From positions 17,794,001 to 17,858,000 of the forward strand of contig OZ024753.1 in the NCBI GenBank assembly GCA_964016885.1: a DNA stretch of 64,000 nt. Direction: 5' to 3'. Within the stretch, counting starts at the first letter, position 1. Each line of letters begins with the position of its first letter. This document shows, piece after piece, positions 61,983-62,622 of the stretch. The position numbers and the translations under genes were made by a program. The notes beneath the pieces were generated by a model, which saw only the letters and a list, made by a program, of their open reading frames with translations, was not told the DNA's origin and ran no database searches. Source of the stretch: Eledone cirrhosa (Eukaryota).

Positions 61983-62622
61983 TGAATTAGAACCCTGTAA
62001 CCATTAAGCTCTAAGTATAAAGTACAAATAAATACTGAGCCGATTAACAATATATAGTAAGAAACACAGTAAACCGTGTGTCTAAAATTACAAGGGTTGA
62101 AAAACCACATATGCTTGAAATATTTAACCAAGAAACAGACAGAATGACGAAATGAAAATAAAAATATATTATCAAATAATACAAACCGCCTCAATAACCA
62201 TTATATCTCTCGGACAGATTATCCCTAATCTGTTTCGCCCTGAGTGTGTTTGTAACAGATAATCCTGGGCTTCATCAGCGAGAGATTGCGATTAAATGCC
62301 ACAAACACTATTTGCCAACGTTCACACAGAAAGATGAATTCATCACCTCGTGCTTCGCCAGCCAAACGTGGTAAGCGCGTGTTGAACAGAAATAACAGTC
62401 CAACACGCACAACTTAATAGCTCATCCTGTAAGAGAGCCGAAATATATATATATGAATTAGAACCCTGTAACCATTAAGCTCTAAGTATAAAGTACAAAT
62501 AAATACTGAGCCGATTAACAATATATAGTAAGAAAGACAGTAAACCGTGTGTCTAAAATTACAAGGGTTTTTCAACCCTTGTAATTTTAGACACACGGTT
62601 TACTGTGTTTCTTACTATATAT
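61983..62622 (-). mobile_element. ORF-less HHR-bearing unit (about 471-bp period, about 1.25 copies plus a short inversion): retrozyme-like element or isolated PLE pseudo-LTR
   Basis: 61983-62098 repeated at 62454-62569; 62570-62622 inverted copy; TA-flanked. Confidence 0.7.
62205..62286 (-). ncRNA. Full three-stem type I hammerhead ribozyme
   Basis: Minus strand: atctctcg CTGATGA a gccc..gggc GAAA cagatta-ggga-taatctg TC cgagagat. Confidence 0.88.

Follow-up and report, generated by a model that had tools for sequence, protein, structure and literature searches.

What kind of element is an insertion that carries a hammerhead ribozyme and no ORF, and which machinery placed it between two long (TA)n tracts? 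The question is raised by positions 61984-62623 of the window, i.e. the whole 64-kb stretch of DNA analysed here. Inspection of the sequence, self-BLAST and a script resolved the insertion into a 471-bp unit, followed head-to-tail by 115 bp of another, and a 58-bp inverted piece arranged head-to-head. An earlier note on this DNA had described a TA-flanked, ORF-less insertion of about 1.25 head-to-tail units with an offset of 471 bp, and we found 1.24 units at that very offset with (TA)n on both sides. As the window is TA-rich, with 14% of it in pure TA runs, the TA flanks alone say little. The parts of the insertion and its flanks, together with the evidence for each, are:

61716..61983, no strand: (TA)n tract on the left target side (3′ side of the element); 98% A+T over 268 bp.
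61984..62454, minus strand: complete ORF-less 471-bp unit, whose 3′ end lies at 61984 (start site A); its whole length is matched by contigs from the public runs X1 and X4.
61984..62048, minus strand: 65-bp tail, present at this insertion end only; the inverted right end stops at unit position 62049, and the X1 depth has a step across 62048.
62049..62056, minus strand: internal UA run with microhomology to the (TA)n target, taken as the second start site (B); right insertion end, and top X1 contigs start at 62050 or 62056.
62195..62294, minus strand: type I hammerhead; folds, descriptor scan and contig variants.
62298..62442, minus strand: 5′ structured part with three predicted hairpins; folding predictions only.
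62443..62454, minus strand: short TA run where two units meet head-to-tail, belonging to the unit itself; joint 62452>GA>61984 in X1 and X4.
62455..62569, minus strand: 5′-truncated second unit of 115 bp, a pseudo-LTR-like direct repeat; self-comparison, one difference.
62566..62623, plus strand: inverted 58-bp piece without tail, joined via 4-nt microhomology; self-comparison.
62624..63135, no strand: (TA)n/(GA)n tract on the right target side; sequence.

The unit has a GC content of 36% and closes with a 12-bp AT run, and the second copy differs from the first at a single position. The inverted piece is the reverse complement of unit positions 62049-62106 (100% over 58 bp), and the direct and inverted arms share a 4-nt microhomology (GGTT/AACC). 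The “short terminal inversion” of the earlier note is therefore borne out as far as an inverted piece exists, but it forms a head-to-head palindrome via microhomology rather than a terminal inverted repeat. The two ends of the insertion do not correspond to the same place in the unit: the direct one lies at 61984 (site A), adjoining the AT run of the head-to-tail joint, whereas the inverted end lies at 62049-62056 (site B), an internal AATATATA. The 65 bp between the two sites make up the tail, found at only one of the insertion's ends. An origin of the inversion by snap-back of the long cDNA was rejected, as the loop letters are wrongly oriented and a single position distinguishes the arms. 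Matches to Rfam miRNAs at 62514-62629 merely reflect the inversion hairpin, and all score far under the gathering threshold.

Between the pseudo-LTR-like repeats, where an autonomous Penelope-like element (PLE) would have an RT and GIY-YIG ORF, lie 356 bp of non-coding sequence. A tblastn search with 12 PLE proteins found no coding remnant in the unit (best E value 0.40), and the longest Met-initiated ORF on the circularised unit has 55 codons' worth of protein (55 aa), in agreement with the absence of coding remnants noted before. An endless ORF on the 471-nt circle (471 = 3 x 157) was considered and dropped, as stops occur in every frame. No tRNA was found in the 64-kb window, and neither LTR nor PBS or PPT in the unit, the last two being judged by eye. 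A tRNA-derived Pol III SINE was likewise discarded: the B-like box (62387) precedes the A-like box (62360), and T5 runs occur at 62164 and 62104.

The minus strand contains a complete type I hammerhead, with the core CUGANGA/GAAA/UH, three helices and an open helix I. C3 is at 62278, GAAA at 62236-62233 and C17 at 62213, and the predicted cut follows C17 of the GUC site at 62213. Stem I has 7-8 bp (Ia), with a predicted 6-bp extension (Ib) beyond an internal loop; stem II has four G-C pairs and a loop of 26 nt, and one extra nucleotide (62271) precedes it after the core 62278-62272; stem III has 8 bp closed by a GGGA loop. All the elements listed in the earlier note, namely an 8-bp stem I, a GC-rich stem II, an 8-bp stem III and the GUC site, are thus present. 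Among the 10 sites in the window found with a loose descriptor, this hammerhead is the sole one with a stem III longer than 4 bp, which agrees with the claim that no other hammerhead in the window has a long stem III. A strict descriptor (stems I, II and III of at least 6, 4 and 6 bp) gave no hit in 60 random 64-kb sequences, compared to 13 hits with the loose one. The minimum-energy structure of the isolated motif is the hammerhead (z -2.5; 5 of 200 shuffles as good). Rfam returned no match at the gathering score, the best hammerhead match being HH9 (15.5 bits, E 0.92). A plus-strand hammerhead at the 5′ end of the unit, where CCGAAATATATA resembles a minimal motif, was rejected because it has no intact CUGANGA or helix I and was missed by the descriptor.

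The long stem III makes it plausible, from the predicted fold, that the hammerhead could self-cleave as a monomer. This would not be special, because most invertebrate retrozyme hammerheads cleave as monomers according to the available text of a 2020 review (PMC7761336). The helix III usual in metazoan hammerheads is described as 1-2 bp long (PMC4209133), compared to 8 bp in the unit, which also has the 26-nt loop II. In vitro, eight of nine predicted Xenopus retrozyme dimers failed to cleave (10.64898/2026.07.22.740005). An “active” retrozyme, as defined in the text of that preprint, has at least two consecutive units in the genome, each with a full hammerhead, whereas this insertion has one full hammerhead only.

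Other hammerhead-like sequences were observed in the window. A second family (42599-43227, 44318-44431 and 45527-45799) occurs as near-identical inverted copies beside a GIY-YIG fragment (43590-43907), with a 12-bp stem II, a palindromic 4-bp stem III and the core CUGAGGA. The third is a minimal family with a TATATA loop III, whose two copies (46030-46211 and 47242-47425) are 89% alike and oppositely oriented. At 26130-26900, a U-rich non-coding element beside (TA)n has a minus-strand hammerhead-like core at 26217 that failed the loose descriptor. The unit matches 26489-26537 (E 2e-4, better than 60 of 60 shuffles), yet we rejected this match as kinship, as it is U-rich low complexity on the other side of the hammerhead-like motif. 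When the unit was compared with the 3′ regions of the window's PLE fragments, similarity likewise stayed at shuffle level or low complexity.

The same window contains a coding PLE that served as an internal control:

51276..53771, plus strand: 5′-truncated coding PLE with RT, CX4CxxC and a GIY-YIG-like end; domain search, tblastn and self-comparison.

Its RT has a Pfam match with an E value of 2e-4, in addition to a weak tblastn match to PLE proteins. It starts with a 386-bp inverted 5′ piece (51276-51661) ending in an AATAT run, and has a 54-bp tail (53718-53771) at the direct end only, with both ends in (TA)n. Minimal hammerheads are located at 53519 (plus) and 51474 (minus). A 228-bp stub of the end of this PLE lies at 46903-47130 and stops at the inner start site.

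The hammerhead unit insertion and this coding PLE share the same end anatomy, i.e. a one-ended tail and an inverted 5′ piece; together with the partial tandem, this upholds the proposal that an ORF-less hammerhead unit was moved by a PLE RT into TA repeats. An inverted 5′ copy and a one-ended tail are also described for published PLE insertions (PMC8557442, PMC3846280). In vitro, two internal RT start sites delimit the tail, and both target strands are cut at AT-rich DNA (PMC11167929). As far as these papers describe them, endonuclease-bearing PLEs (Penelope/Poseidon, Neptune and Naiad; PMC8557442, PMC3846280, PMC11167929) resemble the insertion in the partial tandem with pseudo-LTR, the inverted 5′-truncated copy, the one-ended tail, the microhomology at the 5′ joint, the (TA)n target and a hammerhead upstream of the 3′ end. 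Compared to them, the unit has no ORF between the repeats, and its hammerhead is full instead of minimal. The tail of 65 bp is longer than the 30-40 bp given for published PLEs and the 54 bp of the coding PLE in the window. The start sites differ as well: the UA runs of the unit match the target, whereas Anolis Poseidon is reported to start at non-homologous sites.

To see the unit in other genomes, four public runs, X1 (organism A), X4 (B), X6 (C) and X7 (D), were aligned to it at 80% likeness. Run counts refer to these four of 11 runs, X2, X3, X5 and X8-X11 being left out; seven of the 11 contain part of the stretch, and none is an RNA run. All four runs consist of contigs, and their depth adds up relatives of 80% identity or more and should not be read as copy number. 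Loose ends and pieces are cited from the 17 of 66 and the 27 of 335, respectively, that were listed. The unit was matched by 314 contigs in X1, seven in X4, six in X6 and five in X7, indicating a multi-copy family, and no contig in the four runs spans a complete unit.

The head-to-tail joint 62452>61984 was seen in two of the four runs (X1 and X4, two organisms) in the same register, reading GA where the window copy has AT. In X4 a contig of 163 nt spans it, with 82 nt to one side and 79 nt to the other, and in X1 its depth is 220.9, compared to 372.5 in the last bin (59%). As the register is the same in X1 and X4, the joint's TA run belongs to the unit as a constant feature and is no leftover target, and the recurrence of the joint in two organisms means that the unit repeats without an ORF between copies, a further point for movement of the unit by a PLE RT.

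These data bear on a reading in which an autonomous PLE contains a 471-bp tandem duplication in its non-coding end and the insertion is what remains of its 3′ end after truncation, so that the unit itself was never mobile. Such an end would leave identical integration marks, and about 150 of the 372 depth units of X1 at the 5′ end of the unit (~40%) bypass the listed joint. Against this, the larger share of the X1 depth runs through the joint, which is identical in two organisms, and none of the 17 of 66 loose ends listed leaves the 5′ end of the unit into other sequence. The repeat ends exactly where the element has its 3′ end (site A), an arrangement also seen when a partial tandem of a PLE is followed by a full-length copy. 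In addition, an X4 contig departs at 62354 into sequence ending like the 5′ end of the unit, suggesting a shorter variant that retains the same 5′ end motif. Metazoan PLE hammerheads are, moreover, mostly minimal with a short helix III in the account of PMC4209133, as are those of the coding PLE in the window, and the unit differs from both. The ORF that this reading predicts upstream of the first unit is neither visible in these data nor in conflict with them. We regard a duplicated PLE end as improbable, but as the most serious of the rival readings.

The X1 depth, which sums relatives and does not measure copy number, amounts to ~2,200-3,000 in the tail, climbs to 20,000-28,000 immediately inside site B and then decreases to 12,000-17,000 across the hammerhead, ~5,000 just upstream of it (62288-62335) and 372 at the 5′ end of the unit. 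Such a profile suggests a 3′-biased, 5′-truncated family, as is typical of PLEs, in which the ribozyme and the site B module also occur in commoner relatives. Relatives with diverged tails (loose end before 62056) may account for part of the jump at site B, and relatives of ~85% identity in X1 share 62050-62130. Five X1 contigs extend past the ends of the unit, and an X6 contig stops at 62123, followed by a TA run. Another X6 contig (organism C, depth 27) has 30 nt of the tail (62010-62039) and then 116 nt of unrelated sequence, which possibly represents another family, or an autonomous partner, with the same tail.

The depth profile is also relevant to the idea that the locus is the remnant of a dead pseudo-LTR, which unequal crossing-over expanded locally into a minisatellite. 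Arrays would give a flat depth, whereas the 3′ depth is at least 6x the 5′ depth; moreover, the window copy has just 1.24 units, ends at two defined start sites and contains an inversion with microhomology. A model of this kind was proposed for the birth of retrozymes in 10.64898/2026.07.22.740005, as far as its text goes, and many of the variants are C>T/G>A changes (13 of the 25 places that vary at 5% or more in X1), which is compatible with neutral decay. On balance, this origin seems very improbable.

None of the 25 variable places in X1 falls in 61984-62085 or 62155-62255. Among the listed substitutions, none hits the 11 core, the 16 stem III or the inner 14 stem I positions. Over the four runs, variants occur at two of 51 core and stem positions of the hammerhead, compared to six of 31 loop positions (Fisher p 0.048, post hoc), one of the two being G-U-compatible and the other terminal; a second conservation test, limited to X1, gave 0 of 41 versus ~22 of 287 (p 0.09). 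A majority change at 62289 turns a G-U pair of stem Ib into A-U.

Compared to metazoan non-LTR retrozymes as portrayed in PMC7229834 (Cervera and de la Pena, 2020), PMC7761336 and 10.64898/2026.07.22.740005, the unit is alike in being short and non-coding with a GC content below 50%, in its type I hammerhead and its head-to-tail repetition (in the window copy and, as the joint, in two of four runs), in the absence of LTR, PBS and PPT, in the predicted self-pairing of its RNA and in its co-occurrence with PLEs. Its 471 bp fall within the 51-972 bp of the preprint and just over the 150-450 bp given in PMC7229834. It differs in that it forms a 1.24-unit insertion in a 3′-biased family rather than an array of full units, and in that it has a PLE tail, an inverted 5′ piece and TA start sites, three features that go unmentioned in the texts consulted. 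Judged from the features tested, it appears to belong with these retrozymes. The element is of an already known class, not a new one. Altogether, we consider it probable that the unit is a non-LTR retrozyme, that is, a non-autonomous PLE, which was inserted by target-primed reverse transcription (TPRT) of a more-than-unit RNA, starting at two UA-rich sites within it.

Transport of sequence that is ORF-less or foreign by the machinery of PLEs has parallels. Non-autonomous PLEs with pseudo-LTRs are known in Chlamydomonas (PMC8557442), and the Chlamys non-autonomous PLEs, e.g. MRC1 (PMC8557442), and the in-trans, pLTR-flanked cargo of Adineta (PMC3846280) also share pLTRs and head-to-tail insertions with the unit. 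According to the text available, the Chlamys elements mostly lack canonical hammerheads and have 3′ ends in common with identified autonomous families, whereas the unit has a full hammerhead and no such shared end in the window.

The polarity of the hammerhead, the position of the inversion and the depth gradient all indicate that the RNA sense is the minus strand. In the mechanism that we propose for the putative retrozyme, a tandem copy would be transcribed on the minus strand, and a PLE RT/GIY-YIG protein acting in trans would nick both strands of (TA)n. Of the two nicks, one would prime cDNA synthesis on the UA run at the joint (site A) and one on the UA run that lies within the unit, 65 nt upstream (site B). 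The cDNA from site A would pass the hammerhead cut site and the joint to reach 586 nt, whereas that from site B would stop after 58 nt; the two cDNAs would then anneal over 4 nt and be filled in. The likeliest helper would be a TA-targeting PLE of Neptune type, a candidate suggested by the target and by CX4CxxC elements in the window and not by shared sequence: two PLE fragments of the window have the CX4CxxC linker, and neither shares sequence with the unit. This linker is associated with Neptune/Nematis and a (TA)n bias in the account of PMC8557442.

As the long cDNA extends beyond the cut site and the joint, the template would be longer than a cut linear monomer. A monomer cut at GUC would halt the long cDNA after ~230 nt, which leaves an uncleaved multimer, a ligated circle or a template jump. 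At the cut site 62213, neither a depth step nor a loose end (among the 17 of 66 listed) was found, which fits a template other than the cut linear monomer, contigs being a weak test of this. An uncleaved multimer may well be the template, at somewhat less than an even chance; unprocessed RNA is the main in vitro substrate of the anole PLE (PMC11167929). A ligated 471-nt circle, arising from hammerhead cleavage and host ligation, has a comparable claim, and retrozymes are reported to accumulate as circles in coral, mussel and axolotl (PMC7229834). A template jump we hold to be unlikely. The circular or multimeric template of the earlier note is consistent with the data, but circle and multimer are not separable by them, and a template jump would fit them too.

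A more detailed version of the circular template is possible though doubtful. The UA runs of a hammerhead-processed 471-nt circle would pair with nicked (TA)n, and a Neptune-type PLE RT would start inside the circle and pass the ligated cut site and its own start point, yielding by rolling-circle reverse transcription a more-than-unit insert with tail and inversion. If true, the insertion would give direct evidence, at the genomic level, of retrozyme circles being mobilised by PLE proteins, and would name the RNA start signals.

Folding of the whole unit is stronger than that of shuffled sequences (z -4.8 for the linear form; z -4.9 and 0 of 40 shuffles for the circular form), and the predicted circular fold is branched rather than rod-like, with 61% of the nucleotides paired. 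In the context of the full unit, the active hammerhead fold is predicted to lie 3.8-6.8 kcal/mol above a blocked fold, in which 62309-62298 would pair with loop II; the blocked fold is favoured in predictions both for the window copy and with the X1 majority letters. It could, on this model, shield a circle or multimer from cutting; the nearest-neighbour energies take no account of tertiary contacts, and there is no clear conservation of the blocking helix. Covariation gave no support for the 5′ hairpins, where variants keep some predicted pairs and break others.

A small, structured unit with a hammerhead and a long helix III also calls to mind an endogenised viroid-like circular RNA, replicating from RNA to RNA and captured once by a retroelement. 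The ribozyme, however, is on one strand only, the fold lacks the rod shape, and in three or four organisms the family exists as multiple DNA copies with PLE start sites. Metagenome contigs contained no relative: an exact-pattern scan gave 0 loci, and a relaxed pattern gave 69 loci, none of which resembles the unit outside the motif (best E 0.003 over 34 nt). We consider such a capture hardly conceivable, and return to a retrozyme inserted by PLE machinery as the preferred reading. Six of the 69 relaxed loci (L009, L016, L024, L032, L033 and L065) look like full hammerheads of type I that have a long helix III and are unrelated.

Li, Clavereau and Pollet (10.64898/2026.07.22.740005, 2026) already concluded, on the basis of distribution and pseudo-LTR kinship, that retrozymes are non-autonomous PLE derivatives; in the text of the preprint, local tandem amplification is favoured and the mobilising mechanism left open. 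The 2020 review states that retrozyme repeats show no motif pointing to a mobilising element (PMC7761336). PLE mobilisation of animal retrozymes has so far been argued from co-occurrence and sequence kinship, and a PLE tail and inversion footprint on a retrozyme was not found in the available text of PMC7229834 and 10.64898/2026.07.22.740005 or in the wider literature searched, subscription papers and supplements aside. Here, an ORF-less hammerhead unit bears the full PLE integration signature in the same window as a coding PLE with the same signature. It also gives two candidate start sites on a 471-nt RNA, and an RNA of this size suits the existing in vitro PLE assay (PMC11167929), which makes the question of a circular or multimeric template directly testable.

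Further retroelement sequences surround the insertion. Directly past the right TA/GA tract, on the strand opposite to the unit, lies a 5′-truncated Neptune-like PLE fragment (63136-63804) with CX4CxxC and GIY-YIG (PF01541), which is 50-60% identical to five proteins of 478-758 aa; a protein search with the neighbouring GIY-YIG fragment retrieved six PLE proteins. On the left, a 5′-truncated LINE fragment (60725-61716, minus strand) with RT and DUF6451 ends in the TA tract, and we take it to be RTE-type from the look of its protein. Another GIY-YIG fragment (59627-59929, minus strand) within 58560-59930 is followed by a very AT-rich 3′ region with diverged repeats of 110-280 bp; no hammerhead was found in this segment. 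LINE ORFs occur at 34524-37313 and 38300-39560, comprising an endonuclease and RT split by one stop, and an RT-end with C-terminal C2H2 fingers. The first part of the window (1-11600) is occupied by a 34-bp minisatellite of ~331 copies.
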